Source of the DNA: Lama glama
Lineage: Eukaryota
Assembly: GCA_028534125.1 (NCBI GenBank)
Contig: CM052816.1
Coordinates: forward strand, 74,278,001-74,342,000
DNA: 64,000 bases
Direction of reading: 5' to 3'
Below the pieces are notes generated by a model that was not told where the DNA came from, made no database searches, and was given only the letters and a program-made list of their open reading frames with translations. Shown in pieces: positions 19,493-57,198 of the stretch. A program made the position numbers and the translations under genes. Each line of letters starts with the position of its first letter. Position 1 is the first letter of the stretch.

Positions 19493-19925
19493 GACTTCTG
19501 TCACTGACCAGCGGTGTGATTTTATGCGAAGACGGCCAACTTTTCCTTCTGATGATCTGCCTAAAATCTGATGGAGCATCCCAAGCAGAAGGACCCTGAG
19601 TATCAATGGACATACAGTTCCCCCAAAGGATCAGGCACAAAGGATACTTTGCATCAAAGAGTAACCTTCAAAATAGCAAACGCTATGCTTCAGCCGCTCT
19701 ACCTGGAGTTCTTTAAAAAAGAGACAGACAAACGCAGGAACAAACGATGATAACTTTAATGCTATCCAGTCAACAAAACCACATCAACTTCGGAGATCCA
19801 GCAAGATGATTGGATTTTGGCCTGGATCTCATCACGTCTCAGCTTCTGAAGTAATTTGCAAGCTGAGAAAAAGGCACCGCCCACCCTTGATAGCGTTTTG
19901 TTGTAAACCTAAGCTCCCAGGAGAG

Positions 19926-19932
19926 TATAAAT
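19926..19932 (+). promoter_or_regulatory. TATA box of ANXA2R-like paralogue 1
   Basis: TATAAAT 57 nt upstream of the ATG at 19983; equivalent TATAAAT in paralogue 4. Confidence 0.7.
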
Positions 19933-19982
19933 TCGCCAGGAAAGGGTCCTTGAGAACTATCCTCCTCTCTGCGACCGAAGCG

Positions 19983-20510
19983 ATGGCGCAGAACTTTCCT
20001 CCCTGCGTGCGCGAGGCCTGGGATTCTGCAGCGGAGTCCCAGAAACCGGAGATGCTGCAAGTCTTGAGCTTAGCGGACCTTGCGGACTGGCAACTGCCCT
20101 TCTATCCTAAGCTGGGCCAGCTCTCTTGCTACCAGGAAGACTTGGATTGGGAATGCCTTTCCAGTCCCTGCGGGTTTCTGTGCACTTATTGCCCGAAACA
20201 TGGAGCCCGAGCGCCGAGCATCGGCAGGCGGAGCGCCGGGAGGCCCGCCAGGGGCCCGACGCCCGCGACCCGCTATGGTCCGGAGCCACAGGCGCCCCAA
20301 GAAAAGGCGGTCGCCGCTCCCGCAGCCTCGGTTGGCAGGTGGCGCCGCTTCCTGGGCCGCCTGTTGAAGCCCGAGAACGCTGCCGGCGGGGACCCTTCCA
20401 AGCGTCGCCCTGCTCCTGCCCCCGGGAGGCAGCGGATCCCAAGCAGATTTCGAGGCTGGGGGCGGCGGATCCGACTTGCAGTGGCCCGGAGGACCCGGAG
20501 CTGCGAATGA
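19983..20510 (+). CDS. ANXA2R-like paralogue 1, 175 aa, apparently intact
   Basis: MAQNFPPCVREAWDSA...WQLPFYPKLG...LSSPCGFLCTYCPKH aligns with ANXA2R at 26439; strong Kozak gcgATGG, TATA upstream, AATAAA at 20648-20653. Confidence 0.85.
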   Translation: MAQNFPPCVREAWDSAAESQKPEMLQVLSLADLADWQLPFYPKLGQLSCYQEDLDWECLSSPCGFLCTYCPKHGARAPSIGRRSAGRPARGPTPATRYGPEPQAPQEKAVAAPAASVGRWRRFLGRLLKPENAAGGDPSKRRPAPAPGRQRIPSRFRGWGRRIRLAVARRTRSCE

Positions 20511-20647
20511 GCCCCGAGATTTGAACTGAGCCCCTCACCGCCCCGGACAAGTGATGTTCCAGCCACATCTCTGCGTTTGCTCCATAGAGATGGAAGTCAT
20601 TTGTCTTTAGAATTCTTAGTGAAATTCCTTTTCGGTACTTAATACTT

Positions 20648-20653
20648 AATAAA
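20648..20653 (+). terminator. Polyadenylation signal of paralogue 1
   Basis: AATAAA followed by T/GT-rich sequence; conserved in copies at 39390 and 44309. Confidence 0.7.
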
Positions 20654-23083
20654 GGTGACGAAAAACGATGTAACAGTCCATTTTTCTTTCCCCAGAGGCC
20701 CTGGTTTGTCTTTTGGGGAAGACTAGGCGCACGGGCGGCGGTGGCCAGTACCAGTTCCCGCGCCGCATCCTCGGTCGCCGGGTTTTGCTCGGCACGGGCT
20801 AGACCCTGGGGTTTCCGATGGAAACAGGCATCCTGGGTGACGTGGGGAGGGGACTGGGGTGGAGCGTGGGCTTCCGTCTGACTCCGCGACACCCGCTGGG
20901 CCTCCCAGAACAGCAGATAGGCCGTCCGCAGCCCCAGCTCCGTGGCCCTGGCCCTTCTTGGCCTGGAGTCCTCAGGACCCTCCAGGCATCTGCACGCGGC
21001 TCTGCTGCCGCCTCCACCGCATTTCCCCCACTCCTCCCTGAACTCACCCAGAAGTTCACCCTCCCCTCAGGGACTAGACCCCAGCTAGTCTCCCTAATCC
21101 CTCTGAATCTCCGCAACACTTTAACCAGCAGCACCGGTCAGGAACTGGCTGAGCTGACCTGCTGCCAGATAGCCAGCGTGGAAGTCAAGGGTATAATGAT
21201 CCCGGACTAGTGGCCGGGAAACCAGCGCCCCCTTCCCAGACCCAAGAGGATGGGCCGAGCGCTCCAGGATCCGGCAGTGGGCATGCTCAGAGCAATTCCT
21301 CCTCCAACTGGCTGTCTTTTCCAAGGTGCCAGATTTCTCCATCCAAAAGGGACTTGAGTTAGGGCGTTCACCCCTTCCTGGGGGTGAAAGCCAGCTCTTT
21401 CTGGAGTAAAACGCCTTTCCAATGTGAATCACTGTATCAGGCTCAGCACAGGCCACGACTTAGAATCCTCCCAACTAGACGAAGAGGATATTAATCTGCT
21501 GCTTCTCCTGGGCCTGGCATCCTGAAGCAATTTACACTGAAGGTTAACATCAACATCTAGATTTCAGCACCTTGTTTCTGATGACTTATAGGTCCAGCAT
21601 TTGCCTTCCCTCTCTCCTCCACCTCTCTCTTGGCCCAGACATGCTATTACACTGTGTAGGAGAGTGAAAGTTTGGAACGTCATCTGTCTTGCTGCAAGGG
21701 GTTGGGGTCTGGAAGCAAGAAGTGGGAGCCAAGTTACTCCCCTCCCTACACTGGGTAGAAGCCCGAGTCTGACAACCTCCAGGGACTGATCTGAGGCTCA
21801 GGGGAATGCTCTATTTCTGTGCAGATGGGAACCACTCACTGTGTGGGAGAGAAATACTGAGGACTCAGAGACTGTCTCTGCACAGTAAGTAGTTTGGGAG
21901 TCCCCAAAAAGACTGCCTGGAGTTGACACTTGTGCTCCTCTCTGGCCCAAATTTAGCCCCAGGGAAGAAGAATACTGCAGATCAGGTGTCTGCGTGGAAA
22001 AGTCACAAAAACCCCAGTGTAGGTGGTGATGGGTGCCCACAGGGCAAGGATCTGGAGTTCTGCCCTCTCTGAGACTACCTGGGTGGCTACCTCAGTGCTT
22101 TCTCCTCCAACTTCGTTAGAAACACCCCCTTGAATTCAAGCCCTGTTGCTACAGTCACTGGCTTCCTTGTGTTCCAGTCCCCAGGGCATAGTTTGGGATT
22201 GTGCAGATATGACCATCATTTTTTAAAAAATCATACATTGGAAAACATGTCTGTTCTTTATAATTTCTTGCTTATAGAAGTGGGATTCTGGGTTAAGAGC
22301 ATTCATATTGAAATTTTTAATGCATATTGCCACATTGTCTTTCCAAAGATCCTTTTAAATTCATACACAAAAGTTCTGTTGGGAAGTTACTACTTTACCA
22401 ACAGTAGAACAAATGAAAAATTTTAATGTAGGCCACTATGGTAGTCAAAGTTATGTCATTTTAAAAAATGACACTTTGCATTTCATTGACCTTAATGAAC
22501 CCTGAACTGGGTCCCTGCTCCCCTGTCAGACACAAGCCCACCTCCCATCCCTTTTAATCCTGGCTCCATCCACCCAAATCAATTGCACAGGCAGAGAATA
22601 AGGAAACAGACTTTAATCATTGTGCACAATTGGAATTAACATGAAAAGCACGAATATTCTGAGTACATCTGCAAGAAACATCCTTAAGATAGTATTGATT
22701 CCCTGAAAAGAGATTTCTTATTGAAAAACCTGTCAGTAATTCAGGAATGAAAGGACAATAAAGAATATTCTGCACTACAGAGACCCTGAGGCTCATCCCC
22801 GAGCAAGGCTGGGGCCAGGGGAGAAGTCCAGACAGGCAGAATGAGGGCCTCCACTGGGGTGACTCCGTGACTCCAGTCCAGGGCATGGGTTGAAGGGTTG
22901 CCGTGTGGCAGGGCATAAGGCTGCCATCCTTCCTTACTTTGTGGAGTTCCTGGGTTTCAAGCCTCATTTTTCAGCAGTCTCAGGGGGTGGGGATGGGAGT
23001 GGGTGGGGCTGTCTTGGGATCCTGGGAGGCAATCTGGCTGCTTGTCTGTCCACCTCCGCTGCTGCTGGCATCTCCTGACTGGT

Positions 23084-23437
23084 TCAGGCCCTGTTGAGCT
23101 GCGTGGTCTGTAGCTCTGGCCTCTTCTTGGTGGGACAGTTGTTCCATCCCGGATGAGCCATTGGCTCCTGGGCTTGTGGGTCTCGACAGCGTTTTGGGCT
23201 GCTCTCAACTTGGGGACCGTCTGCATGCTCGGTGCAAGCACGAAGCAGCCTCTCACATGCACCATAGTGCCCGTCCCCGTAGGACTGGGGCATTGGCAGG
23301 AGGGGCGGCTCAGCGCGGGGAAGTTATCCAGAACCCAGGCCCAGGCCTGGTTCTGGGTTCAGGCCCCATGGCATGTGGGGCTCTGGATGTGCCCACCTCC
23401 AAGACAGCTCTTGCAGGGTGGATGCATGGGATTCCAT
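23084..23437 (-). pseudogene. Disrupted copy of the 117-aa divergent ANXA2R-family gene
   Basis: Same 354-nt span as 43026-43379; +1 insertion ~23350 gives TAA at 23324-23326 after 37 aa, then a -1 deletion ~23288; TATA lost; ATTAAA at 22612-22617. Confidence 0.8.
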
Positions 23438-24409
23438 CTCTTCAGCCTTCTTACTGGACTGGGACTAGTTGCCTGTCTAAGCAAAGGGGCAAGTGATTCA
23501 GTCATTTACTGAGTGTGTCTGTCTTGTATAGGACATCAGGAAACCTAAGTTCCAGATAGGTGGGGATAGGCACTCATTTACCTTTCAAATTGCCTTGGAG
23601 CCTCATGGGATAGAGGAGAAAACTGCGTCTTTCTGGGAGGCACTATGGAAATTAAGAGCGGTTTCATTGATGGAGTTAGAGGAGGGGGATGGGAGGAGAG
23701 GAAGTTCCCTGGGGAAAGTTCAGTCCTGGTCGGTTCCACTCCTGCAGGAAAAAACTCTCTACTCAGCAGGCAAAGCTGCCAAATTACACTTCACATGTAG
23801 GTCTAATAATTTAACAGCTCAGAGAGGATTGCCTGATTTTAGAGATGAGGTTCCATGATGGCAGATCCTCGCCAGAATACAAAGCTAGTTTCAGCAGGAG
23901 CTGGATTAAGATACCAGATTTTCATGTAGGCATATCAGGAAGGGAAACAAGTAAAGGAGTGATTAGGTAAGGGTAGGAAAAGGAGAGTGCTTACTTAGAG
24001 TTGTAATATTTCTATTTTTGTCTACAGTAGCTTAGTGGAATCAAAGAGAGATCTCAAGTTTGCCCTGATTTTCATACCTACACGACAAATTGAATTGAGT
24101 GAATGCCATGTTTTTTTTTATCTTGTTGGTAGGACCCCTACCCTATTTTATATGACTATGAATATTCTATCATTAGTGATTCTCATTTCTCTGCTTCCTT
24201 TCTTCCATATAATTTTTCTTGTTAATAACTACTGTACTTTTAATGAGTATTTTGGTAATTTTCAGTGTGGTACTATATAGTATTGTTTTGCATGCCTATA
24301 TATTCAACTTATGTAAAAGCAAATGTGTTCTCTTTAGGCAGTTTAGATAGAAATGAGCACTGGGCAGGGGGAGAGGAAGGGGAAAGGAACAACCCAGAAG
24401 ATAAAAGTG

Positions 24410-24902
24410 TGTCTGCATTCAGGAAAAAGGACTCCAGAAATTTTTACTTTCTCTAAATGAGGGCCAGCAAAAGAAGCCAGTTAAAATCAACACGCTGCAG
24501 CTGTGCGTAAGAGGACCAGACGCAACTTGAACCAATGAACCTGCCCAAAAGGGGATGGGCGTGCCAGAGCGTAGGAATCTGAGTTGTCAATCAACCAGAG
24601 CACAAAGAACCTGAGCTGTCAATCAGCTCCATCACTCAAAGAACCTGAGCCCTTAATCAATCACCAAAAAAAATGCCCCCAAGCCAAGATATAAAAACAG
24701 GAAAAACAAAGGAGCCACGCCATTTTTCCTCTCTTGGATTGGCCCGCTCCCAATTCTCAGGAGTGTACTATCTTTTACTACCTTTTTACTTCACTAATAA
24801 AACATCTTGCTTATGTCACGCTTTCTGTCTCTCATTAAAAATTCTTTTTTTTTCAGGTGACTAAGAACCGAGGTAATTGTTATTTCCCTTTTCCCGGTAA
24901 CA
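24410..24902 (+). mobile_element. Solo ERV LTR
   Basis: TG...CA ends, 5-bp TSD AAGTG (24405-24409 and 24903-24907), TATAAAA at 24690, AATAAA at 24796, short U3 repeats. Confidence 0.88.
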
Positions 24903-25861
24903 AAGTGATTCTTTAGGGTAGCAAATCTAGATATATTAGGGCCTGCAATTTTTAAATCGTAGCAAATTGCGGTTTCCGAACAGTGAGTCCCAGCAGCTCC
25001 TGGTTTGCCACGCCAGTGGAAGCGCCAAGGCCAAAGTATGCCCTTGGCAGAACCCTACCCCTCCCATGTGCCATCGCATTTTGGGCCGAGGACAGCTAGT
25101 GTCCGCCTGATGCCCTCTGATGGTGGTGGGACGGTGAGATTAGCCCTGAGCCACTGTGCCCCTTGGCTATTCCCTTAGTGTCAAGAGATGGGACTTCTTC
25201 TGTCACATTTACCCAAGTCTAGGAGGAAACTCAAAGTCATGACGTTACACGGTGGATTTAAAGTGAAAACAAGGATTTTTTTTTTTTTAGCCATAGAGAC
25301 GATAACTACCGCAGCGGTGTCCAGACTGAAGGGTTTGATTAAAGGGATTTTCATTATTTTAATAAAGTTAAAAATTTCAACCCATAAAATAACATAAACT
25401 AAGTTGAATATCAAGTACGTTAAATAGCAAGACAAGTAAAATTTTTAAATAAATAAAATGGAAAGGTTGTAAAATGTAACGATACTTTTAAATTAAAAAT
25501 GAAAGAATGAAGAGAAATCGAAAATAAATTATCCTCACACTGAGACGGTGTTTTGCTCTAAGGCAGCACCGGTCATTCCTCCACGCAGGGTGGTTTTCGG
25601 GGTCTCAGGCTGCTCCTTTCTGAAAGCCGGCGGTTTCTCTTTGTCTGCACAGCAGATCGCTCTCAAACGGGTAATTTGTCTTGGGCCACAGCACCACTGT
25701 TGACTGCTGCCAGTGCCGCTGGTGTCTGCGGTTTCTCGTCCGCGAGGCGGCCAGCGGCGGCACCGCTCCTTTTGCCCAGAGCGGTGGCTTCTGGTCTCCG
25801 CCGGGGCGCCGACAGCTCCCTGCGTGTTGCAGGGCTCCTTCTCTGTCGGGTTTGCTTATTG

Positions 25862-26285
25862 TTGTTCCCTTTCGGTTGTTTTCATGCTATGTTTTTTCAT
25901 CAGAATGACTTATTCTGGTTCGCTGTGCTGTCTAGGATTTGTCTGAATTCCATTGCGTCCGGTTTCCTTTCGGCACCTCCGTTTCCTTTCGGTTGTTTTC
26001 CTCTGGCTACGGTTTTTCATCGGGACGATCTATTACCGTCCGTTGGCCGTGCCCTTGTAGGGCTTGTCACTATTCTATTTGGTCCGGTTTGCTTTCGGTT
26101 TCTCTGTTTCTTTTTTTATTTAAGTATAGTGAGTTTATGTCGTATTTTATTCCGTCTGATTTGCTTTTGGCTTTTCCATTTGTTTTCGGCTTGTGTAGCT
26201 CTGGTTACGATTTTTTTTCATCAGAACGATTTATTTCAGCTCCCCGTGCTCAGTACGATTTAGTCGTATTCCATTTAGTCTACTG
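25862..26285. repeat. Three degenerate T-rich units (~110-120 bp) upstream of ANXA2R
   Basis: Recurring core 'tttttcatcagaatgacttatt' / 'tttttcatcgggacgatctatt' / 'tttttcatcagaacgatttatt'. Confidence 0.7.
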
Positions 26286-26438
26286 ATTTTTCTCATATTT
26301 CCTACCAGGATTCTTTTGATGTCTGACTTGCCTCCGCCCACGGTGCATAAATACCAAGGCTCATGGCCCTTCTGAAGGCTCTGCCTCCTCCATCAGAGCA
26401 AAGGCTCGTGTCCTGCTGCTGGTCCGAGGTCTATTGCG

Positions 26439-26933
26439 ATGGAGCAGCATTTTCTCCAGCCCGAGAAGGAGGCTTGGAATTGCGCAGAGGTGGAGCCAGA
26501 GCTGCAGCTTCCTGGCGGGAGCCCGGCAGATTCTGGGCCGTGGCCGCTTCCTTTCTACCCGGTACTGGGAGAGTCCTCAGGCCATCGCGGCGATTTCAAT
26601 TACGAACTGCTTTCCAGTCCTTGTCGGTGCCTGCCCTTTGACTTCTTGCCAAACAGACCCAGTCCCAGAGCCTGGAGCACTTTGGAAGCAAGCGCAGCCC
26701 AGCTCACAGCCACAGGAGAGAGGGACCCGGCAGAGGAACCCGACCAACCCCCAACGGGACCTGGTGACAGAGAGCAGGACAGCGGGCCACCTTCGGAGCT
26801 TCACCTTCCTCCCGTCGCCGCTTGGTGGAGCCAGAACCCGCTGGTCTCCGGCTGCTTAGAGTGGATTGGTCGCTCCCTGCATGCCTTGACCTGTGGCTGC
26901 TGCAGGTTCATTTTTGGCGCTAAGGAGCCCTGA
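26439..26933 (+). CDS. ANXA2R: Annexin-2 receptor (ANXA2R/C5orf39) orthologue, 164 aa
   Basis: MEQHFL...AW...GPWPLPFYPVLGE...LLSSPC...AEEPD...CLEWI...CC..I.GAKEP matches human ANXA2R as I recall it at both ends; gcgATGG Kozak; GC box and CATAAATA at 26346; AATAAA at 27006-27011. Confidence 0.9.
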   Translation: MEQHFLQPEKEAWNCAEVEPELQLPGGSPADSGPWPLPFYPVLGESSGHRGDFNYELLSSPCRCLPFDFLPNRPSPRAWSTLEASAAQLTATGERDPAEEPDQPPTGPGDREQDSGPPSELHLPPVAAWWSQNPLVSGCLEWIGRSLHALTCGCCRFIFGAKEP

Positions 26934-27254
26934 GATGGCAGCAGGAGTCTTTTGGGCACTTGCCCCAGGAAAGGATTCTAGGTTACAAAACCTGCCTCCT
27001 TAGGAAATAAAAATGCATTGCGACACAATATCAGAGTTCGTTGTCCATGTTTAGTTCTTGTTCCCTTTGAGTTTCTTGTTGCAGTTCTGGTCACTTAGCA
27101 CTTGGCAGCTTCCTTGCTGGACAGCCAGCCCAGGGAACAAAAATATATTCATATTTTCGCCCAGCCGGTTGTTTGTCTATGGCAGTAGCTTTGGTTCTGC
27201 TGAGTGGGATGTTTCTGGCTGGCTAGCAGCAGCGGCAGTCACTTCCTGTGGGGG

Positions 27255-28273
27255 TGGTACCGAGTCCAAATTCGTTCTGCTCCACACTGGACAGGCCAAT
27301 AAGTCGGGAGACGAGGTGTTGGGGCAAGGAATAACAGCTTTATTTGGAAAGCCAGCAGATTGAGAAGATGAGGGACTAATATTCTAGAGAACCATCTTAC
27401 CCAAGTCAGAATTCAGTTTCCTTTTATACCAAAAAGGGGAGAGTGTGGTTGATTGCAAACTTCTTGGTATTGGAATCCTTTGTTCTTGGAGCTGTCCACG
27501 TAGGTCAGGTCATGGTGTTCCTGTAAACCTCCAACAAGACAAATGTTATTCTCTGCCCCGAAACCTTTCATCTCTATATGAATGGAAAAGTGTTTTACCA
27601 TTAAAGGTCAGTGTTGCCGACGAAATGAATCACAAAAATGTGGCTGACGAAATGAATCCCTGAGCGGTTGTGGTGCAAAAAAGTCTCCCGAGGCTCGGGT
27701 TTCTTTATTCTTATACCCCTCACACAAAGGAGCAACCCGAAGCCGTACCAAGCATCGCGAGACAGTATTTTTTGAATTGACGCAAGCGCACTACATCTAA
27801 GACGTTCCTCCTAGTCATTTCCTTATCCTAAGTATCTTTATTGCTCTCAGACCCTCCTGTTCCCAGGCCTGTTCCTTTTGAGGAACAGATAAACATCCTT
27901 GTCTGCAAACAATGTTTCTCCTGGGAAGAGGAAGGGTCTCTTGGCAGGAATTTCTGTTTGCAGATAAGTCCGGCCACTTCTGTGAGATGTCCCGCGTGCA
28001 GGCACACCCACAGTTTCCCTACTAAATCTCCTTCATCCTTGGCAGGAATTTCTGTTTGCAGATAAGTCCGGCCACTTCTGTGAGATGTCCCGCGTGCAGG
28101 CACATCCACAGTTTCCCTACTAAATCTCCTTCAGGTCAGAGCCTTGAGAATGTATATTTCAGGCTATAGGAAACATTCTTTTAGGAAAGGTGCAGAACCA
28201 ACATGATTAAGCATAGGAAACAGCACAGGGTTAGAGCTAAAACAGCTCTAACGTTGTAGTTCTTCCCTAGTAC
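27255..28273 (-). mobile_element. Solo ERV LTR (same family as 5389-5814), interrupted by a younger LTR
   Basis: 'ggagacgaggtgttggggcaagga' is the reverse complement of sequence at ~5740-5762. Confidence 0.85.
27612..28133 (-). mobile_element. Young nested solo LTR, possibly class II (betaretrovirus-like)
   Basis: TG...CA ends, perfect 6-bp TSD GGTCAG (27606-27611 and 28134-28139), near-perfect ~99-bp internal tandem duplication, CpGs retained. Confidence 0.85.
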
Positions 28274-28279
28274 AGGCGC

Positions 28280-29000
28280 TAGCTCCTAAGCGCCAGGGTC
28301 GCCGTTTTCTGGGTCTCTGATTGGTGGAACGGGAAGGCGGGTTTTTCATCCATCAGGAAGTGTTTCCCAAGAGAGCGCCAAATCTTGCCTGAAAGGGCCA
28401 CACAGGGTTGGCGCTTTTTTATTGGCAACACAGGTACTCGAGCTGCCTCAGTTAAGCTTCCCTTGGCACAGCGGTAGTTGCACCGAAATCGCCCTAGGGT
28501 TTCTCGTCCTCCAGTGCGACGCGAGTGCGGGGCGTGGCTGGGCTCTCAGCAGTAAGGCCCCTCAATTCTCTCCAGAGGTAACTGGGTCCTAGCACCGCTG
28601 GATCGCTCCACGCCCCGCCGGTCTCACAGTCGCAGTCCCTGGGCTAGCACGGAGCCCCTGTTGAGGTCTGCACCTGCCCTGGTTGTGAGAAGTCCGCGGC
28701 TCTTCCCTCACAGAACACGTTTGCATCGACTTGTTTTCTCGGTGGCCGCACGCAGCGTACATTCCTCCAAACCGGCTTTTTCTCGGTCGGTGCACTGTTA
28801 ATTGCTCCTTGCCGGCGTTGCTTGGAGGCAGCACTACGCCAGGTGCTCCGGGTCAGCGTTTTGTGAGTGGCGGCTTGGATAAAGCACTGGTCAACGAGAT
28901 TTCTCAAGCAAAGCAAGTCTGGATTCGGGACTAGTAGCGCTTCAGCCCCGCCTGCGATTTCTCAGCCTTAGGAATCTGGCGTTTTACCGTGAGCTCGAGA
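28280..29000. promoter_or_regulatory. CpG-rich promoter-like segment
   Basis: High CpG density, two ATTGG (CCAAT) boxes, CAGGAAGT ETS site, GGGGCGTGG GC-box. Confidence 0.5.
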
Positions 29001-29479
29001 TTTCTTAGTCTGAAGAAGTCCCGCTGGAGAGATTCCTTAGGGTAACAAGTGGTGATTTATTCGGGCCTGTGATTCTTTGTCCTAGCAAATTTCGGTTTTG
29101 GAACAGCAAATCTCAGCAGCTCCTGAGTTGCCACGCCTGTCGAAGGGCCAAAGCCAAAGCGTGCTCTTGTCAGGGCGGGACCACTCCCCTGTGCCATCGC
29201 TTTCTGGGCTGTAGCACAGTTAGTGTCCGCCTGATGCCCTCTGACGGTGGCGGGACGGTGAGGGTACCCCCGAGCCACTCTACCCCTTTTCCATCCCCTT
29301 AGTGTCATGAGTTCCGGCTTTTTCTGTCACAACACACTTGCTCTACTTCTAGTAGAAAGCTCAAAGGCGTGATGTTTCATGGTGGATTTAAAATGAAAAA
29401 TAAGGACTTTTTAAAAAAAACCTTAGGTCTAGTTTGGCAATTACAATGGGCTTGTCCAGACGCAGGGTTTGGTTTAAAC

Positions 29480-36085: not shown

Positions 36086-36564
36086 TCACCTCACTTCATT
36101 CATTTCAGCTCTGATCCTTCTGGGCGCTAGCCCCGCTGAGTTCTCACTGTCCGCAGTTCTTAGGTGGCAGCACCCTCGAAAGGACCAAAACGGATATTTG
36201 CTTTTGACCACAACAGGACTCTGCGCCAGGCGTGCCTTGCTGGTCCGGGCGCCGTTAAGGTGCTCTGTCTGTGTCAGCACTTTCTGTCGCGGTCACCGCC
36301 CCTCCAAGTGCACCAGACCAGCATTTTCTTAGAAGTTTTCACTAGAGTCACAGTGGTGCTTTCCCGGGTCGCAGCCTCGCCGCCTTCCCCAAACCCCCGC
36401 AGTGGGTGGCTGGCAGCAACGCACTCGCTTAGAGACGGTTCGATTTAGCGAATTCCGCCTTAGCGATGCTTCCCATTTCACTCGCCTACGAATCGGGGTA
36501 TGCCTGGGAATGCGATTTCCAGCGTGAAATCTGTAAAATATTCTTTTTGCCTTTCCTTCTTTTT

Positions 36565-37575: not shown

Positions 37576-39508
37576 TTCTAGACTTGAGAAAATAGCTGCC
37601 TGCTAGATACCTTGCTGTTTCACAGTCTCAATACTGAATTACATAAATTAGCAATTGTGTAAGAAATTTTGCCATCATAGACATTTATGAAAATTCCTTT
37701 TGCTTGCTTGATAGATTCTACAAAAATTCCAACATCCTTTTCTTTTTATATATACCCTGGGTTCCTGCTTTGGCTGTTGGGGAAGGACAAGGAGCTGAGG
37801 CAGGGGTGGCTGGTGTCATTCAGGTTCAAGACAGAAAAAAAAAAAGGAAAGAAAGAAAAAGAAAAGAAAACTGAAAAATGGAGCACACACCCCCATTACT
37901 AGAAATAGTTATAGGTAATGGCAGCAGCAATCTATGCCAGAAAAGCTTTTTCTCTAACAATGAAATGGATAGTGAAATACTGCAAAGACCCCAGCTTTCT
38001 ACCAGCAAAGAGCACTTCTATGGTATTCAGCATTGCTAGTCAGTTTCACAGCCAAAAACAACCTAAGACCATAATTTTACATATTGCTAGTACACTGTTT
38101 AGTACCAAACTTATTCTACAATATTTAATAAAAGACTGGTGTCTAGATGTATATTATAATTTAAAACGTAGGGAATTATAAAGTGACAATAAGAGCTTGC
38201 CTGATAGAGTGTAACACTGTCTGCTTGGTCTATAACAGTCCCAGTAATCAATCATTCCTACTACTGCTACTTTGGATAGAATACACTGTAGCATATTTTG
38301 GTGTCAAATAAGTTTTGCAAAGAAATTTACACACAAAAGGGTAGAGGGCATAAAACTCTGAATTTTAGAATTGCTAAAGGAACTGTAAAACTGGGTTACA
38401 TACTGATTGAGCCACAATATCCAGTCTGCAGAGGTGGCATATGGAAGGAATCCTGGCAGGGAAAAGGGTGGGGATGACAGAAACTAGAGAGGTGAGGCGG
38501 AAGGATTGTGGGAAATAATTCCGGAGGGAGGAAGCCCCTGCTTTCAGGGATATGTGAGCTTAATCCCAGTGCAGGATTTTGCCCCCAGAGAAAACACAGC
38601 AGCTGAGAGAGTCTCAGAATAATTGTAGTTAACATTATTCACCCTTTACACTTTGCCTGACATTCTGTCAGCGCCGCTTTTCAACCCCGAATTTGGTGGT
38701 TGCGATAGTTCAACACTATCCGGAAAAGAGAAGGCAAGGGCCTTGGAGAGTCGCCAGTTTGAAAGTGGGATATGAAGCGAGCCTGATCGCTCCAGAATCT
38801 GGCCACAGAAACCCCACACTACAAAGGACAATTGCTGGCTTTCCGGTGTCCAGGTACCAAGGCCTTCCCACTCTGCCCCAGCTCATTGCCTCCAGGTCAG
38901 CTCGGAGGTGCCAGCTGGAAATCAGGTTTCTGTAGAGTCAGAGGAAGGAAGGACGCGCCCAGGAAAGTGCCTAAGGGAAACAGAAGCCCTGCACTGCTGG
39001 AGGCCAATGCTTCTAGATGTCTTTGGGCAGCAACAGTCTCTGGAAGACTAGGAGCAACTGGTTGGTGCCGCAGGTGGACTGGGAGGGGAAAGGTCCAGGG
39101 CAAGGGAGCAGGAGTATTTCTCAGGCTAAGCGGAGTTCTCAGGGATGCTGGCTGCTCTTTGCTGGATCTCTTGGAGCGCAGCAAGTGTAACTCTGACAAC
39201 GGCTATGCTGGACCCCTGACAGCCGGGTATGCCCAGGAGACCCCACCGACTTTTCCCCGTGCAGCAAATCAGGAGACAGTGGGTCCCGCGCTAGGACGGC
39301 ACCAGACACTCCCTCCGCTGCTCCTCCTTGCTTCCCCCAAAGCTAAAGTGGAAACACATGAGAGAGGGAAACGTTGGAATTTCGTGTAATTTATTAAGTA
39401 AGCGAAAGAAAAACTCACAAATGTCTATGAAGACAAATTCTTATATGATTGCCAAACTGAGAGGTGTTATTGTAACATCTGTCGCAGGGGATCGTCTAAT
39501 GAAGGATC

Positions 39509-40050
39509 TCAGCGGAGATGAGGGCTCTTGCGCCGAAAGGCTGCAGGGGAGGCAGCCCAAGTTCTTGGCGACTGCGCATTGGTCCGCTGCCACTTGTCTT
39601 GAGACTTCGAGTGGTGTCTCCCCAGGCCAGGAGGAGGGCGATGCTCCAGATGGCTCTTTGAGGTCAGAGGTCTCGGGATCCAGATTTTGGGTCCTCGATG
39701 TTGGAAGACCAGCCCAGAGAAGCTTTGGGGGCGGGCGGCGGCCGCCTCTTCCTCGGGCGCCTGTGGCTCCTGGCGTGTCGTGGGCTTTGGGTCCGGGGTG
39801 GGCAGCGAGGTTCTCTGCGCTCTGGGTCCGTGTTTGGGGCAGTAAGCGCGCAGAAACCCGCAGGGGGTAGAAAGTAGTTCCCTATTGAAGTTCTGGTTGT
39901 CCCAAGAGAGGTGGCCCAGCTTAGGATAGAAAGGGAGCTGCCATAACTCAGGGTCCACTAAGCTCAAGATTTGCAGCATCTCTGGTTTTCCTGGGGCTTC
40001 TCTGCAGAATCCCAGGCTTCCTGCACGCATTGAGGAAAGTTCTGCTCCAT
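39509..40050 (-). pseudogene. ANXA2R-like paralogue 3, frameshifted (possibly rescued by an alternative ATG)
   Basis: ATG 40050 reads MEQNFPQCVQEAWDSAEKPQ, then a +2 frameshift ~39988 gives TGA at 39964; the other frame continues KPEMLQILSL...WQLPFYPKLG...STPCGFLRAYCPKH; TATA degraded; AATAAA at 39390-39395. Confidence 0.8.
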
Positions 40051-43025
40051 CCCTTCCGCCACCGAGAGGGGGAAAAGTTTTCAGGGATTCCCTTCCTTTT
40101 GAATTATTATTCTGGGCTCTTATGCTTCCAACTAGAGAGTATTAGGGTGGATGGTGCGGTTTTCCTCAGCTTGGTAATTGCTTCAAAAGGCGGGACCTGT
40201 GGAGATTAAGGGAAAATCCAATCATCTTGGATGGGGCTGTTCCAAGCTGAATTGATTTTGTTGATTCAGAGAATTAAAGTTTTTGTGCTGTTGTTGTTTG
40301 TTTTTAAAAGAATGACAGGTAGAGGGGCTCTGTCAAGACAAGTTATTTGGAAGGTTAGTCTTTTATGAAAAGTATCCTAAATGTCTGACCCTTTTAGGGG
40401 AACTGTATATCCACTGATTCTCAGGGCCCTTCTGTTTGGAAAGTACTGTCAGATTTTACCTAGATGATCAGAATGAGACGTTGGCCATCTTTGCATGAAA
40501 TCACACTACTGTCAGTGAGACAAGTCAGACTCACACCCTGGGCTTCTGTTGTGGATTTCTAAGTCAAAACATTTTCAGAATTTTAGTCAACATGTAGGAG
40601 GGGAGGGATCAAGGTCTCGAGAGAGCCAGACACAGACCGTTTGGGTACAAGTTCTATCATTTCTGTAAGACTCAGCTAGTCATCTGGCCTTTCTTGCCTT
40701 CACACTTTTACCTGGACGACAGCTAAAATTTAATGTTTTACAAGGTAGCTTTCATGATTAAATTGGATAACAAAGGCCAAATAATTAGATATCCCAGGCA
40801 GAAAAGAAGTTGTTCAATTACAAATATTATTTTCATTATCATTCTTAGTGAGATGAGCATGGACATAAACATAACATCAATGAATAACAAACCCTAAATG
40901 CTGTCTTTTTGTGTGTGTTTAATCTTAGTGGACCGCTTTTGCCTTCTTGTGTCAAATCGATAGTGAAATTGCATTCCTTTACATCCTTCCTCAGATGTTC
41001 AAACACTCTGTTGGCAAACATGTCAGTGCATCCAAGCCTAGATTTCCTTCATCAGTCATTTATCTATCTAAACAAAGTCAGTTTAATTCAAAGAATTTTA
41101 AATGAGCACGTTTTGACAGCCTGCCGCGAGCAGGGTGCTGTGATGGGTGCTACATACACAGAGCTGTAGAACTGGCTCCTGCTTTGGAAGGTCTCACTTC
41201 TAAGGGGAGAGCAGAGTCCCAGTTAAGAGACCATGAAGACACAGCCAAATATTGTTTCCTATGGTGGTCGGCTTGATGCCAGGAATGAAAACTCTAAAGT
41301 TTAAGATGTTTGAGAGGACTCCACAAAAGCCAGTCTTTTTGCACAAGGTGAGGAGAAAAGACAATGGTAGGGATAAAAGTGAGAAAAAAGGAAACAGAAA
41401 TAAAGAAGACAATCAACATCAAAAAATGAGAAATAAGTAAATAAAGAAAGTGGATTCAAGTATGGACCACACAAGAGGCAGAGGGTTGGAAACTCTGGTC
41501 AAGACAGCCAATAGAGGGAGGTTGAAGGGGTTCGTTGGAGCAACTTGAATCTTTGCAGCTGACTTGGGGGTATGAAGTAATTCAAGCCAGAAAGCTCTGC
41601 TGGGCCAGGTTTAAGGGAAAGACAACAACTCTGTTCCCTTTGAAGTCTCAGCAGTGAGCTTATTGGCTCTGGTGCTGCAGAACCTTCTCAGAGAGTTGTT
41701 TGAACACCACTAATTTCCCCCAGAGGGTCAGGGGCAGCTAGCCTGTGTTACAGCTGCACCAGAAGGAAGCCACTACAGTGAGAACCAGCAATGTGGTCAG
41801 ACTGCAGATGATACCAGTCACCAACAAAGTGGAGATCACCTGATTTCAGACAAGGTCTACCCATTATTACATGCAGTTGTGATGTCTTAATATCTCTTTT
41901 AATCTGCAAAAGTTCCCCATCTCTTTTATTTTTCCCTTTCATTTTTTTTCACAGAAAATTGTATAATAAGCACAATGTCCTACCTATTTTTTTTTAAAAT
42001 ACTTTTCTGAGTATCAAGAATAGAAACATTCCACTGACCCTGTGAGCCAGCAGGGAGCAAACTCATTCTTCACTTTTGGGCATGTGAAACAGCAAGGTGT
42101 CTACCAGGTAGCTACTTTCTCAGGACAAGAATGAGGGGATTTCAAGATGGGAAGGAAGAAAGAGTATTTCAAGGATTCTACAAATGATCATTGAAATTGA
42201 TGTGCAATAATGTAGATGGATTTGAATAAAATCAGTCCATTTCTATACCAACAATAAGTTTTCATCAGTTTTTAGGGAAAAGGGTGGCATAGGAGAATAT
42301 ATATTTATGAGAAGAGGTCACAAGAATACATGTAGGCAGGGATGGGCTTCCCCTGCTGAGAGACAGCAGTGAACTGTTAGGGTCATCGTGTCCTGGCCAC
42401 TCTAGTAGTCAAAGTTATATGTCATTGCTTCACTTTGCATTTGTTTAATCTTATTGAGCCCTGACCTGGGTCCTAGCTCCCCTTTGAGGCACGGGCCCAC
42501 CTCCCCACCCCACCCACTTCGAATCCTGGCTCCACCCACTCAATCAATTGCACAGGCAGAGGATAAGGAAACAGGATTTAATCATTGTTCACAACTGGAA
42601 TACACAAGAAGCATGACAATTCCGAGTAAATCTACTAGAAAGGTTCTTAAGATAGTATAGATTCCACGAAGAGATATTTCTAATTGAAAAACCTGTCAAT
42701 AATCCAGGAAGAAAAGGACAAGTAAGGAATGTTCTGCACCAGAAACTTCAAGGCTCAACCCCTAGCAAGGCTGGGGCCAGGGGTTAAGTCCAGCCAGGTA
42801 GAATGAGGGCCTCCATTGGGGTGACTCAGTGACTCCAGTCCAGGGCATGGGTTGAAGGGTCGCCTTGGGGTAAGCACAAGGCTGTGATCCTTTCCTTGTC
42901 GAGTTCCAGCCTCAGTTTTCAGAAACTTCGGGGTTGGGGTGGGAGGTGGCCTGTCTTGGACTCCTGGGAGGTGATCTGGCCACAAGTCTGTCCACCTCCG
43001 GTGCTGCTGGCATTTCCTGGCTGTT

Positions 43026-43379
43026 TCAAGCCCTGTTGAGCTGCGCGGCCTGTAGCTTTGGCTTCTTCTTGGTGGGACTGTCGCTCCATCCTGGATGAGC
43101 CACTGGCTCCTGGACTTCTGGGTCTCGACAGCGTTTCTGGCTGCTCTCAACTTGGGGACCGTCTGCATGCTCGGTGCAAGCATGAAGCGGCCTCTCACAT
43201 GCACTATAGTGCCCGTCGCCGTAGAACTGGGGGCATTGGCAGGAGGGGCGGCTCAGCGCAGGGAAGTTATCCAGAGCCCAGGCCCAGGCCTGTTCTGGGT
43301 TCAGGCCCCGTGGCATTTGGGGCTCTGGATGTGCCCACCTCCAAGACAGCTCTTCCAAGGTGGATGCGTGAGGTTCCAT
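43026..43379 (-). CDS. Divergent ANXA2R-family protein, 117 aa, apparently intact
   Basis: gcgATGG Kozak; TATAAAA at 43462-43468; ATTAAA at 42577-42582; W13, WALDNFPAL and SACERPLHACTEH have the same spacing as the other family members. Confidence 0.72.
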   Translation of the reverse strand: MEPHASTLEELSWRWAHPEPQMPRGLNPEQAWAWALDNFPALSRPSCQCPQFYGDGHYSACERPLHACTEHADGPQVESSQKRCRDPEVQEPVAHPGWSDSPTKKKPKLQAAQLNRA

Positions 43380-43527
43380 CGCTTCAGTCTTCTCACCAGG
43401 CCAGGACGAGTTGCCTGTCCAAGCAAAGGGAGGAATGATTCAGTTCGGTACTTACTGCAACTTTTATAGTGTCTGTCTTGAACAGGGCGTTGGAAACCCA
43501 AATCCAAATAGGTGGGGATAGACACTC

Positions 43528-43542
43528 ATTTGCATTGCAAAT
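43528..43542 (-). promoter_or_regulatory. Octamer / PORE-like palindrome
   Basis: ATTTGCATTGCAAAT contains a perfect octamer ATGCAAAT on the minus strand, ~60 bp upstream of the TATA box. Confidence 0.6.
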
Positions 43543-45017
43543 TGCCTCGGAGCCTCATGGGGTTGAGCAGGAAAATGCATCTTTCTGGGAGGTGCTAGGA
43601 GAAATTACGAAAGGTTCCGGTGATTAAGTTGATGGAGGGGGTTGGGAAGAGAGCACGATCCCTTGGGAGAGAGGTAGATTCCTGGTCGTTTCAATTTATT
43701 GGAAAAGGCCTCGCTACTTGGGAGGCACCCCTAGGCAAAGTCACCCAGTTATGGAGTAGGAATTTCAAGGAGCACCACCATTCCAAACCCAGAAGCGCTC
43801 GAAGCATCCTGTCACGGCAGGGGAGGCTGGTTTTCGGGCCAGTCCAGGGTCATTATCCCCTTAGCTTCTACGCCAGCTATCTGGCAGCAGGTCAGTTCAG
43901 CCAGTCCCTGGCAGGCGTTGGACAAGAAGGTTGCGGAGAGTCGGAGGAGTAAGGGGCACTTGTTGGGATTAATTATCGCCTGAGGGTAAACTGGAGGAGT
44001 TCAGGGAGGGGTGGGAGGAATGCGGCGGATGCAGCCGCAGAGCCGCGTGCAGATGCTCAGAAGGCGTGCCTGCTGTTCTGGGAGGCCCAGCGCGGGTCGG
44101 AAAGTCAGATGTAAAGGCCACGCTCCACCCCATTCCCTTCCCCAACCCATCCTCCTCAGCCGGTGTGCACGGGAGACCCCGCGCCCAGCAAAGCCCAGAG
44201 ACCAAAGAGCCGGCACCAGCCACCGCCGCCCGGGAGCCTCGTCTTCCCAACAGGCAAACCAGGGACTCTCGGGAAGAATCACGGACTGTGACACCGTTTG
44301 TCGTCAACTTTATTGAGAAGCGAAAGCGCAGTTACTATTTTTGGAGTTCACATTGTGTTAAATGTATGCCTAAGGGAGCGGGCCATTAAAGACTTTGATA
44401 TGGTGGGTACTGTAATTAAATTACATTTTCTTAATGAGGAAAATGAAGCAGAAGGGATCAGCTCACTTCTGGAAGGCACTATTGAAACTCCATGGGTTTT
44501 GATGATTGCATCAAGCAGAGGTAGGGTTGTGGGGCGAGAAGGGTCTAGTTACTGACAATTTCCATAGGATATAGAAAGCCTCTCTGTGTTTCAGACAAGC
44601 CTGGACAAATTACACTCAGTAATTCTCGTATCAGAGCGGCATTGCCTGATTGTAGAGAGTAGATTCCACGAGATTAGATCATAACCCAAGATCACACAGA
44701 TAGTTCCTGCTGGACTGAGAACATAGGTCCTCAAGCATATGCCAGGTAGGGGAATTAGCAAAGGAATAATTAGGCTGGATTGGGAATAGCAAAGACTTGT
44801 GCCTACCTAGAATCGTAATTTTTCTACATTTGTTGACGCTAGATTACCTGAATCAAAGGAACATTCAAAATTGCTATGTCTTTCATACCTAAAGACAACT
44901 GGGTTGAGTTAATGTCACATTTTCTATAGTGGTTTTTGCTGACCCCTATCCTCTTTTAGGTAATTATGTGTATTCTATTCTTAGTTATTCCCCTTATTTG
45001 CTTTCCCTCTTCCACTG

Positions 45018-45517
45018 NNNNNNNNNNNNNNNNNNNNNNNNNNNNNNNNNNNNNNNNNNNNNNNNNNNNNNNNNNNNNNNNNNNNNNNNNNNNNNNNNNN
45101 NNNNNNNNNNNNNNNNNNNNNNNNNNNNNNNNNNNNNNNNNNNNNNNNNNNNNNNNNNNNNNNNNNNNNNNNNNNNNNNNNNNNNNNNNNNNNNNNNNNN
45201 NNNNNNNNNNNNNNNNNNNNNNNNNNNNNNNNNNNNNNNNNNNNNNNNNNNNNNNNNNNNNNNNNNNNNNNNNNNNNNNNNNNNNNNNNNNNNNNNNNNN
45301 NNNNNNNNNNNNNNNNNNNNNNNNNNNNNNNNNNNNNNNNNNNNNNNNNNNNNNNNNNNNNNNNNNNNNNNNNNNNNNNNNNNNNNNNNNNNNNNNNNNN
45401 NNNNNNNNNNNNNNNNNNNNNNNNNNNNNNNNNNNNNNNNNNNNNNNNNNNNNNNNNNNNNNNNNNNNNNNNNNNNNNNNNNNNNNNNNNNNNNNNNNNN
45501 NNNNNNNNNNNNNNNNN
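45018..45517. other. Assembly gap (500 N)
   Basis: Run of N. Confidence 1.
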
Positions 45518-45686
45518 ATTCCTGAAGTCCTTGCTGCTGAAGATCTCAGTCCCCAGCTGTGTGTGGCCAGAGCTGGGTGGATCTGGCCAAGAGAGGCTGC
45601 CAGGGCAGGCATCTGTCCATGTGCTCTGCAGCGCTCTGCTCTCCTGGGGCGGACTCTGACTCCTGCTGGCTCTTGGGTGTTGACTC

Positions 45687-45962
45687 CTAGGCAGACAGGT
45701 TTAGATCTGGTTCTAAAGTGGTCTGGGCTCTATACAAGTGTCTGTGCCCAGGGCAGGCCCAGCTCAATAGCCCACATGGCGTGGAAAGCAGTTCCCAGTT
45801 GAAATGTGGATTGCCCCACCAGGGCTCCCCCAGTCTGGGGTAGAAAAGGAGTGGCCATGGCCCCAAATCTTCTGAACTCAGAGACAAAGACACCTGGGGT
45901 TCCAGTGCTATCTCCACAGAATTCCAAGCCTGCTTCACACAGAGGCAAAAAAGCTGGGGCAT
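45687..45962 (-). pseudogene. ANXA2R-like paralogue 4, 91 aa, probably nonsense-truncated
   Basis: MPQLFCLCVKQAWNS...GPWPLLFYPRLGE...LLSTPCGLLSWACPGH; TATAAAT at 46044-46050; ANXA2R-like frame continues past the TAG; 3' end falls in the gap. Confidence 0.75.
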
Positions 45963-48489
45963 GACTTCAGCCTCTAGATCTGGAGACTGGAGAATCTGGG
46001 CTGAGAGAGGAGGCAAAGGACTGAGCACTCATTCAGTATGGGAATTTATACTGTTCGGGCTCTTGGGCAATCCCAAATTAGAGTGCATTAGGTAGGGTGG
46101 TGGCATTGCTTTTTGAGACAAATTGCTTCAGACGGCTGAGAGTGATGTTGTTAAGTCCAAAGTGTAATCCTATCGGGTGCAATTTCATAAAATTGAATTG
46201 GAATCAGTTCAGTTATTAATTGGATTAAAGTTAAAAATAAGAAAGGCTACATATGGGGTTACTGATTAAGAAAAGCCAGATGCTTTGTTTCCTTTATGTA
46301 ATGTCTGATGTTCACAGCACCTCCGCCAGGCAAGTGTCCTCTGCTTGTCCGAAGGCTTAAATCATTACCAAAATCAAAGCACAAGTTATGCTGGAGCTGA
46401 GATGGAAATGTGAAAGAAGAAGGTTTCAGTGGGGCGGACTGTTTGGAGAGGAGATGGGGACCGAAGTAATTGACCAATTCTCTACTCTTCACATGGGCTC
46501 CCAACTTCCTGTCTGGGTCCTCTACTTTGAACTCCTAAATTCCAAGGATTGAGAGAAGAGAAGGCAGGGAGGGAAAGGAAAGAGGAGCTTTAGATATCAA
46601 ATGATTAAATGGTTTGGGTTCCAATCTTGTTTCCTCCTTTACTAAACATATGTGATTATCATTTAAACTTTCTAAGCTGCAGTTAAAAAAAATCTATGAA
46701 GTGAGGACAAAACCCTCACTAATTTCAAAAAGTAGCTTTGAGTACTTAAAAAAATAATATAGGTAAGGTGACAGCTTCTCACACAATATAATGAATAACT
46801 TTGTAAGGGTATAATCATTATTATTTGATCAACACTGTACAATAGAAAGATAATCCCAGTGGAGAACAAATAGAAAATGTGGCTTTTAAAAACATCCCTG
46901 CTGTAAGTATATTGGATCCACAGTAAAGCTGTAACAAGTATTGCTACCCTCCATTTAGCATCTTCCATGACTAATTCTCCAATGTCATAAACTTTGCACA
47001 ATCAATTTAACAAACATATATTGAGAGCCTGCTTTTTGTCAGGTGTTATGAAAAGAGCTACACATATAAGGACAACGGAGGCTCATTCTTCCTCTCCTGC
47101 CTGAAGCAGGGGCAGAATTCTGCAGTCCCAGAGCTCCAGCTTGAAAGGGCTCAGGGGCTGCGGGATTTCTCCACATGGGAAACCGCTTTCAGAAAGAGCT
47201 CAGAACAGAGAGGAAGGTGGATGCAGCACAGACCGAGGTCATGAACATAAGATACACGCTTCAGCGTGGGGCCATTTCTTTTCGGTACCCTTCATTTCTA
47301 TGCATTTAAAACGTTTTCTGAATCACACCACTGCATTTGTTCAATAATAATGTAAGGAGATTTGTCCTCACTGGTTTTATAGATTGTGAGGGAATGTTTT
47401 TCAATGAAATTTTATTCCCCACCTCCAAAGTAAGTCATTTCATTGATTTATTTGTTTAGATGTCAAGCAGGAGAGCAAAAACACTTAGTTAATGGGAAAA
47501 TGCAAGTCCTTTGCACTCACCTTTTGCCTTCCAGGTTAAGCCTTAACATGTATTTGAAAGTACTAGCTTGCATTTCAAATCTAAGTTTGCTTTAAATAAG
47601 ACTAGTGGCCCAATTGTACAGTATTATTAGCTAATGGTAAGAAACAAAAGACATTCACATTGAAAATTAGCATGCAGAACCATTAAAGGAACAAAGTTTA
47701 AGCCTGACACAAGAATGGGGAAGATAGACAGAGTAGATCTTAACTGTTTTCAACACACACACACACACACACACCCCAATACACAACTATGTGAAATGGT
47801 GGGCGTGTCAATTTGATTGTTGTCATTTCACAATGTATACAGCCTGTTAAATAATTACGTTGTACATCTCCAAGTTAAAAAAAGAGTGGGAGCATAGAAA
47901 GAAGTTTGAACCAGAGAGAGAGTTTTCCTCCAGATGAGAGAATCAGGTTTCCACTCTGTTCTCTCCCCTCCAGTCACTCAATCATTTCTGACAACACAAA
48001 CACACTTAACTAATTCTTTTATCTCACATGGCACACACAGCCATGTCAGGATAAAAATTCTAACACCAGTAAAACGATAACCATTATAATTGGGGGCAAT
48101 TTAAAAAATCTTAGGTCTATCTCACTAGAGAGAAATTGTAAAATTACTGTCTTTTAAAGTCACTTGAGCTAGTTCCTCTTTGTGTGGTTATGATACCAAC
48201 TTGTTACACATTTAGGATCTTTTTTGTTTGTTTTAGTTTTAAAGAATTATTTTACATAATTAAAAAACAATTTTTGAAAGTATTAAAAATTTTCCCAAAC
48301 CAGTTCTACAATTATATTTAGAGGAGTTTAGCTTCTATCCAAGTGTCCTCCACTCTGTTATATATATTTATATGTAAATATATATAAAAGTATATATTTA
48401 AAGAGAGAGAGACTGCCTTCTCCCTTGGCTACAATCCTTCCCCCATTCTACGAGATCCCATAAAGGAGTTCTCACTAATCTTCTCTCTT

Positions 48490-57119: not shown

Positions 57120-57144
57120 TACAGGCGCCTCCCGCGGGGCTCCC

Positions 57145-57198
<54 letters not shown>

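Follow-up and report, generated by a model that had tools for sequence, protein, structure and literature searches.

The ANXA2R-family cluster in llama

We analyzed a 64-kb stretch of llama DNA (Lama glama, assembly GCA_028534125.1, contig CM052816.1, positions 74,278,001 to 74,342,000 of the forward strand; hereafter the window, meaning all 64,000 nucleotides) that carries a cluster of ANXA2R-family genes, and compared this family with the rodent Tcstv genes, which have been two-cell-stage markers for many years, have been regarded as specific to rodents and lack any known biochemistry. Our results suggest that this is an old placental cluster of paralogues of ANXA2R, a gene now called RESIST, and that rodents carry it in the form of the mouse Tcstv cluster.

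Searches with tblastn and a DNA profile found seven family copies in the window and no others at E<0.01. Six lie within 19740-46240, four intact and two frameshifted, and a broken seventh, copy G, lies outside at 55925. A preliminary description had announced a multi-copy family between the former coordinates, which was borne out; the similar size of about 170 amino acids that it expected fits A (175), B (164) and C (179, as in P0041 of Camelus ferus), but not D (91) or E (117). The copies are listed below, with E values for PF15721, the Pfam family ANXA2R.

19983-20510, plus strand: copy A, intact open reading frame (ORF) of 175 amino acids, A/C subfamily; E=3.7e-14
23437-23084, minus strand: copy F, E subfamily; its reading frame in this assembly has an in-frame stop and two frameshifts that compensate each other
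26439-26933, plus strand: copy B, intact ORF of 164 amino acids, orthologue of human ANXA2R and mouse RESIST; E=3.1e-27
40050-39509, minus strand: copy C, A/C subfamily, with a one-base frameshift near 39985 in this assembly
43379-43026, minus strand: copy E, intact ORF of 117 amino acids, divergent WAWALDNFP subfamily; no Pfam match
45962-45687, minus strand: copy D, intact core-only protein of 91 amino acids; E=2.6e-18
55925-56137, plus strand: copy G, broken and CpG-depleted, outside 19740-46240; 45% identity over 66 amino acids to P0128

The coding regions of the cluster genes are single-exon, frameshifts interrupt C, F and G in the present assembly, and upstream of their starts the copies stay homologous for a few hundred bases of DNA. 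When 13 translations from the window were scanned, four passed the PF15721 cut-off of 27 bits (A, 54; B, 97; the C remnant, 36; part of D, 68 bits). None of the 13 matched DUF1438 (PF07270), the Pfam family of the Tcstv proteins, at E<=10, and direct Pfam membership of the window copies in DUF1438 was therefore rejected. Two other candidates were also dropped: a 234-amino-acid start of A at the in-frame ATG at 19806, because homology begins only at 19983, and long ORFs overlapping or antisense to the copies (e.g. 23153-23512, 39358-39870 and 20107-20568), which appear to be shadows of GC-rich coding DNA; those scanned had no Pfam match at the cut-off. Copy A has a TATAAA at -57 and an AATAAA 138 bases past the stop.

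Copy B shares 163 of 164 residues with Vicugna pacos XP_072807221.1 and carries the C-terminal CLEWIGR helix. In both trees described below it falls in a clade with primate ANXA2R and with rodent, elephant and armadillo proteins (support 100 and 98), and only copy B is the orthologue of human ANXA2R and mouse RESIST. ANXA2R was renamed RESIST by Witt et al. (2025), according to whom it is not a surface receptor (PMC12310523). RESIST binds CNOT1 and CNOT9 of the CCR4-NOT complex directly, hinders docking of TTP (TTP-family) proteins on CNOT1 and stabilizes Ifnb1 mRNA; its activity needs the C-terminal region, although the truncated protein still binds CCR4-NOT, and the RESIST helix is predicted to sit over the site on CNOT1 that TTP uses (PMC12310523). 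It is encoded by a single gene in humans and by two identical copies in mouse, Resist1/2 (Gm21188/Gm36079), and is interferon-linked and the sole characterized family member (PMC12310523). The published role of the ANXA2R orthologue is immune, not embryonic, and the word Tcstv is absent from the text and supplements of the RESIST paper that were searched (PMC12310523).

To place the other copies, we used the relatives returned by our searches (21, 54 and 113), with subfamily labels given by eye and then tested on two trees, one of 73 rows by 89 core columns and one of 53 rows by 186 columns; tree rows were picked from about 195 proteins, leaving out fragments and near-duplicates. Copies A and C group in the trees with proteins of camel, pig, hippo, rhino, bat, squirrel, sloth and dugong. 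A is 52% identical to hippo P0058, and C is 89% identical to P0041, which is intact. D is 73% identical to the 91-amino-acid P0043, and raccoon dog P0199 also has 91 amino acids; because this length and the stop at codon 92 are conserved, D is not a truncated pseudogene. The D type (45687-45962, P0043, P0046, P0199) is a conserved 91-amino-acid microprotein, mostly unannotated, whose stop is the same in sequences of camelids and carnivores. The E clade (support 100/100 in the 73-row tree) joins the family only by profile-profile comparison, where E and non-E profiles reached 95.6%. Its relatives in other mammals have 118 amino acids, and the E and F regions are 81% identical over 1.3 kb. The E type (43026-43379, P0093, P0113, P0115, P0121, P0131, P0133, P0144) has a near-invariant WAWALDNFP and is mostly without a Pfam family.

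The camelid copies are thus old paralogues in subfamilies that span placental orders, not recent duplicates. The cluster exists in other orders too, since horseshoe bat has A/C- and E-type genes with neighboring locus tags (010055, 010059, 010060), and in pig four RefSeq proteins of A/C type come from a contig of one length. The pig A/C-type copies (P0056, P0219, P0220) look like an expansion that parallels the Tcstv cluster of mouse. Ratios of nonsynonymous to synonymous substitution (dN/dS) between copies were 0.26-0.50 in four of six pairs and saturated in two, which is compatible with past constraint, but saturation is too high for these values to carry weight. The C-terminal helix is clear in B, divergent in A, unrecognizable in C and absent in D and E, its equivalence to residues 168-177 of mouse RESIST being taken from position.

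Kinship of Tcstv with the ANXA2R family

DUF1438 has been reported only in the Tcstv1-like group, whose genes appear rodent-specific (Zhang et al. 2006, PMC1635278). In all our comparisons Mus musculus TCSTV1/3 were represented by DUF1438 proteins of voles and Mus pahari. A profile of 21 family members that included no Tcstv sequence was scored, index-free, against 1.84 billion proteins and gave 113 matches at E<=0.001, 94 of them new. A PF15721 match (E<=10) was found in 82 of the 94; the other 12 comprised nine E-type proteins and, as judged by eye, three family fragments. One of the 82 was P0143 (E=3.0e-5, profile positions 5-170), which matches DUF1438 at E=2.9e-40, and from it the vole proteins and Mus pahari P0151 were reached. 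All seven DUF1438 proteins that were scanned pass the DUF1438 cut-off, P0151 with 265 bits over the whole model, and six of the seven give a weak PF15721 match (E 0.05-0.18). By eye, P0151 matches 8 of the 14 positions of the published Tcstv3 epitope (PMC4728397). Only the index-free search reached Tcstv; word-indexed searches with B or its alignment missed it, and the ESM Atlas gave no usable match for B or P0151.

We then compared Tcstv by hhalign with two family alignments that predate any Tcstv sequence. The results were 97.2% (E=3.3e-11, 155 columns) and 94.8% (E=5.1e-8, 160 columns). As controls, the reversed alignments reached 0.4% and 0.2%, and 40 block shuffles gave at most 0.9% and 3.1%. 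The reciprocal Tcstv profile retrieved the family down to E=1.7e-7 (Z=1000), against 2.3 for the best reversed control. These results indicate that the DUF1438/Tcstv proteins are almost certainly homologous to the ANXA2R family along their whole length. The earlier suggestion that ANXA2R and Tcstv are one family was therefore upheld by independent sequence tests (retrieval, hhalign and their controls), and the profile-profile comparison that it named gave similarity, with vole and Mus pahari proteins in place of TCSTV1/3.

Could the likeness be a low-complexity or chance match between neighboring proteins rich in Pro, Ser and Cys? The two groups are separate Pfam families, none of 58 ANXA2R-family members matches PF07270 at E<=10, and pairwise identity is just 27-31%, as such a match would have it. 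However, the match is colinear from first to last residue, retrieval is reciprocal, the reversed and shuffled controls stay at background, and Resist1 and the Tcstv-cluster genes are adjacent in the mouse genome, an independent line of evidence; the chance explanation is thus largely refuted and very improbable. The adjacency follows from published coordinates: Gm21188 spans chr13:120,034,604-120,052,194 (PMC12310523), and regions at 120,024,970-120,030,889 are assigned to B020031M17Rik/Gm20767 (PMC5787696), which are named as Tcstv-cluster genes (PMC11912362, PMC4728397), so that the start of Resist1 lies about 4 kb from the end of the Gm20767/B020031M17Rik regions.

Next, we asked which branch of the family Tcstv belongs to. 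Against subfamily profiles, Tcstv reached 97.8% with A/C (score 78), 95.5% with B (57), 92.7% with the minor group H (48) and 80% with D (37), and did not match the rodent Resist (0.4%, score 16) or E (0.3%) profiles. Over eight 10-member subsets, scores were 53-78 for A/C and 35-58 for B. In the reciprocal search ranks 1-15 were all A/C-type, with the first B-type protein at rank 27, and the vole protein P0150, used as a single sequence, matches D, A and C, not B, at E<0.01. The segment PCG-x-x-x-WDC-x-x-H is common to Tcstv and the A/C proteins of sloth, hippo and squirrel, while B has SPCWRL. Both trees place Tcstv outside B, and the approximately unbiased (AU) test rejects a grouping of Tcstv with rodent Resist (p=0.0026). 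Tcstv are thus a paralogous line that split early from RESIST, not an offshoot of rodent Resist, and they probably descend from an A/C-type paralogue. Three results speak against the latter descent. Tcstv as sister to all B passes the AU test (p=0.25 core, 0.24 full length); Tcstv sits on a long branch, of more than one change per column, whose place has bootstrap support of 84-87; and when the 1667 frames of the window are scored with the Tcstv profile, D (E=0.0014) and B (0.03) come out ahead of C (3.4) and A (4.9). The proposal that the llama cluster corresponds to that of Tcstv is supported at the level of the cluster, where Resist1 adjoins Gm20767/B020031M17Rik, but not at the level of the gene, Tcstv being paralogues and not orthologues of ANXA2R.

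As for the wider neighborhood, the preliminary description had put human ANXA2R beside ZNF131/NIM1K, and it is so listed, between CCDC152/SELENOP and ZNF131/NIM1K, in a roughly position-ordered human table (PMC13012080). In the cattle table ZNF131 is directly followed by SELENOP with no gene between (PMC13012080). Expression of ZNF131 rises in cattle from 12 to 197 counts per million from the 4-cell to the early 8-cell stage (PMC13012080) and in pig at the 4-cell relative to the 2-cell stage (adjusted p=0.0004; PMC8277874), suggesting that the cluster neighborhood is active at genome activation. ZNF131/NIM1K were not found in the window, a motif scan of its six frames showing neither BTB nor C2H2. 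In mouse, Zfp131 presumably lies near the Tcstv cluster on distal chromosome 13.

Transcripts and promoter sites of the copies

According to published work, Tcstv genes are expressed at the 2- to 4-cell stage. To assess RNA from the camelid copies, four runs were checked on 19400-27300 through contigs of related animals, mostly 90-99% alike; one run is recorded as RNA, three are guessed to be, and none is recorded as embryo. One long RNA-run contig covers B. A joint at 23471/25538, found in contigs of two of the four runs and from two studies, defines the following intron.

23472-25537, minus strand: GT-AG intron between F and a 5' exon that lies upstream of B, in a CpG-rich region

Because the 5' exon of F lies in that region, F is transcribed divergently from B. 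Human LOC153684 is listed next to ANXA2R, on its upstream side (PMC13012080). The spliced F transcript (22600-25700, minus strand) ends near an ATTAAA at about 22615, and an LTR-like (long terminal repeat-like) sequence at 24340-24900 attracts many contigs. LOC153684, whose orientation we take to be divergent to ANXA2R, may be the counterpart of the spliced F gene. Copy A is covered only by contigs of 215-292 bases and depth 5-9, in runs chosen for holding A; such shallow contigs neither show nor exclude somatic expression, and uncovered parts are not read as silence.

We also searched for DUX4-type sites, using TAAYYYAATCA as the assumed pattern and allowing one mismatch. Of 17 matches in the window, five fall in the 500 bases that precede the seven starts, where 0.94 were expected. 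These five belong to A, C, D, E and F, at distances of 164-255 bases upstream, and none was found for B or G. The published bovine genome-activation motif is TAAYCYAATCA (bioRxiv 10.64898/2026.03.05.709741), from which the sites of A, C and D differ at one position each and those of E and F at two each, and the TAAT-3-ATTA type is usable by DUX-family proteins (PMC10514451). The sites are listed here together with a site at B resembling the interferon-stimulated response element (ISRE).

19807-19817, minus strand: DUX-like site of A, AAATCCAATCA, one mismatch; also a possible CCAAT box; homologous to the C site
23668-23678, minus strand: DUX-like site of F, one mismatch to the assumed pattern, two to the bovine motif
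40214-40224, plus strand: DUX-like site of C, same sequence as the A site
43621-43631, minus strand: DUX-like site of E, one mismatch to the assumed pattern, two to the bovine motif
46217-46227, minus strand: DUX-like site of D, TAATCCAATTA, TAAT-3-ATTA palindromic type
26093-26102, minus strand: ISRE-like site, GAAACCGAAA, 346 bases upstream of B; a weak hint

The ISRE-like pattern gave one match against 1.2 expected by chance, and ISRE, GAS, NF-Y, NF-kB, TATA and TAATCC patterns showed no enrichment upstream of the copies. The DUX-like sites are a lead, not evidence of expression, and embryo expression of the camelid copies is a real, if slightly doubtful, prospect. Several points weigh against it. 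The five sites amount to about three independent events when A/C and E/F are counted once each, and p=0.005-0.018 is the value before correction for nine patterns tried. All five are imperfect, the sole perfect match (8358) being far from any copy, and the A/C site contains CCAAT and may be a CCAAT box. B and spliced F are present in contigs of runs not recorded as embryos, and so are not embryo-only. The cattle and pig embryo supplements that were searched hold no row for these genes (PMC7498599, PMC13012080, PMC11542365, PMC8277874); several cluster genes are missing from cattle and pig gene tables and would go unseen in published embryo data. Finally, human ANXA2R reaches only 1-11 fragments per kilobase per million (FPKM) in six control 8-cell samples (PMC13012080).

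The embryo role might instead be a rodent invention within the same family and cluster. Tcstv would then have acquired their two-cell expression in muroids, and the camelid copies would be RESIST paralogues of immune or somatic function that multiplied in a host-virus arms race. The imperfect sites, the non-embryo RNA contigs of B and F and the FPKM of just 1-11 for ANXA2R in human 8-cell embryos all suit this alternative, as does the interferon link of the only characterized member (PMC12310523), and the fast divergence, copy turnover and broken copies fit immune gene clusters. However, the DUX-like sites stand upstream of five copies other than B and at neither B nor G, the ISRE-like site was found at B alone, and the short contigs over A are silent on somatic expression. 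We consider a rodent invention unlikely.

The remaining DNA of the window contains L1 fragments, CpG islands and two 500-base N gaps, one of them (45018-45517) just downstream of D. Duplicated non-coding blocks of 66-77% identity pair 20645-21326 with 43730-44317, 23819-24207 with 44631-45014, and 24904-25281 with 29028-29412, showing that an old inverted duplication gave the A-F and E-D halves. Between B and C, direct repeats at 30640-31170 and 34830-35300 (78% identity, about 4.1 kb apart) resemble the LTRs of an old retroelement remnant. A CpG island at 56900-58200 with a (GGCGCG)n run is probably a promoter, for which no adjacent coding gene was identified.

Proposed action on CCR4-NOT and comparison with known systems

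A search of the PDB returned no match, and thus no solved relative of the family. The AlphaFold model of D (pLDDT 57, pTM 0.17) has short helices only, and confidence this low is what disordered chains with short motifs would be expected to give. The parts shared in the family are an N-terminal Trp-containing core and a C-terminal W-x-W-I/L-x-R helix, the latter in B, Tcstv and several A/C proteins; going by position, this helix would lie at about the place of the RESIST helix over the TTP site on CNOT1.

We propose that the family proteins are largely disordered, act via short Trp-rich motifs and dock on CCR4-NOT, B doing so in immune or somatic cells. In the cleavage embryo, CCR4-NOT clears maternal mRNA. 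There, A/C-type copies, and perhaps D and E, might be switched on by DUX-family factors, a step that we put forward tentatively. Tcstv-like paralogues would then dock on CCR4-NOT and blunt or redirect deadenylation, and blunted deadenylation would protect newly made zygotic mRNAs as the clearance of maternal mRNA tapers off. D and E, which lack the C-terminal helix, would act as core-only competitors or weak modulators.

Previously, Tcstv1 overexpression was shown to raise Zscan4 protein with the Zscan4 mRNA level unchanged (PMC4728397), suggesting a post-transcriptional action of unspecified kind. Binding of Tcstv to CCR4-NOT is a real possibility, if slightly less likely than not. The AWDS and WPLPFYPxLG motifs, near-invariant elsewhere in the family, are altered in Tcstv, which tells against such binding because it may have been lost with them. 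Tcstv could then have a new job outside CCR4-NOT (e.g. nuclear, telomere-recombination or Zscan4-stabilizing), for which RESIST would be little guide. In keeping with this, AWDS and PLPFYPxLG are altered in all DUF1438 proteins seen, the Tcstv branch is as long as noted above, and the effects reported for Tcstv are longer telomeres and an increase in Zscan4 protein (PMC4728397). Yet Tcstv keep the C-terminal Trp helix and the QxEPQxxPG, ETCDG and PCG-x-WDC-x-H segments, the C-terminal region is the part that RESIST needs for activity (PMC12310523), and a protein-level effect on Zscan4 is compatible with an effect on poly(A) or translation. A new job is, in our judgment, quite improbable.

Altogether, the best explanation, which we hold somewhat more readily than we doubt, is an old RESIST/ANXA2R paralogue cluster of which Tcstv are the rodent form, with docking on CCR4-NOT in the embryo. 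In a bolder version, which we regard as rather unlikely, the cluster would encode CCR4-NOT modulators in placental mammals at large. RESIST, as one branch, would serve interferon mRNA, and the other branch would consist of DUX-induced paralogues, namely Tcstv in mouse and the A/C, D and E types in laurasiatherians, that brake deadenylation at genome activation. If this were true, a DUX-induced burst would end maternal mRNA clearance and protect the first zygotic transcripts, and the two-cell markers Tcstv1/3 would be embryonic CCR4-NOT inhibitors.

The kinship of the two known families, the old multi-subfamily cluster and the resulting Tcstv hypothesis appear new. We found no paper linking ANXA2R and Tcstv in a search that lay outside subscription journals, curated gene databases and some supplements, and none tying Tcstv to CCR4-NOT as judged by title or the start of the abstract. 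The RESIST link gives Tcstv a precise and cheap hypothesis, CNOT1/CNOT9 binding together with a change in poly(A) tails, for a stage at which development is driven by mRNA deadenylation. RESIST, moreover, turns out to belong to a larger placental cluster that is poorly annotated.

Among known regulators that dock on CCR4-NOT is BTG4, in oocytes. Others that do so with short motifs are the TTP/ZFP36 family, Roquin and RNF219 (PMC12310523). The ANXA2R family would resemble the latter three in the proposed binding of CNOT1/CNOT9 surfaces by short motifs of a disordered chain; no sequence homology to them is claimed, and ANXA2R-family proteins have no known RNA-binding or catalytic domain. With RESIST/ANXA2R itself, the camelid proteins share the same short, Trp-rich and probably disordered build and, clearly in B and in divergent form in A, the C-terminal helix, and A, C and D also pass the PF15721 cut-off; the difference is that the cluster adds four or more old subfamilies to it, of which two lack the C-terminal helix. 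With the Tcstv family, which has been described as rodent-specific and without an informative domain (PMC1635278, PMC4728397, PMC11912362), the cluster shares multi-copy genes of similar size and full-length homology, and the mouse Tcstv cluster abuts Resist1, whereas identity is only about 30% and no window copy is DUF1438 by Pfam.

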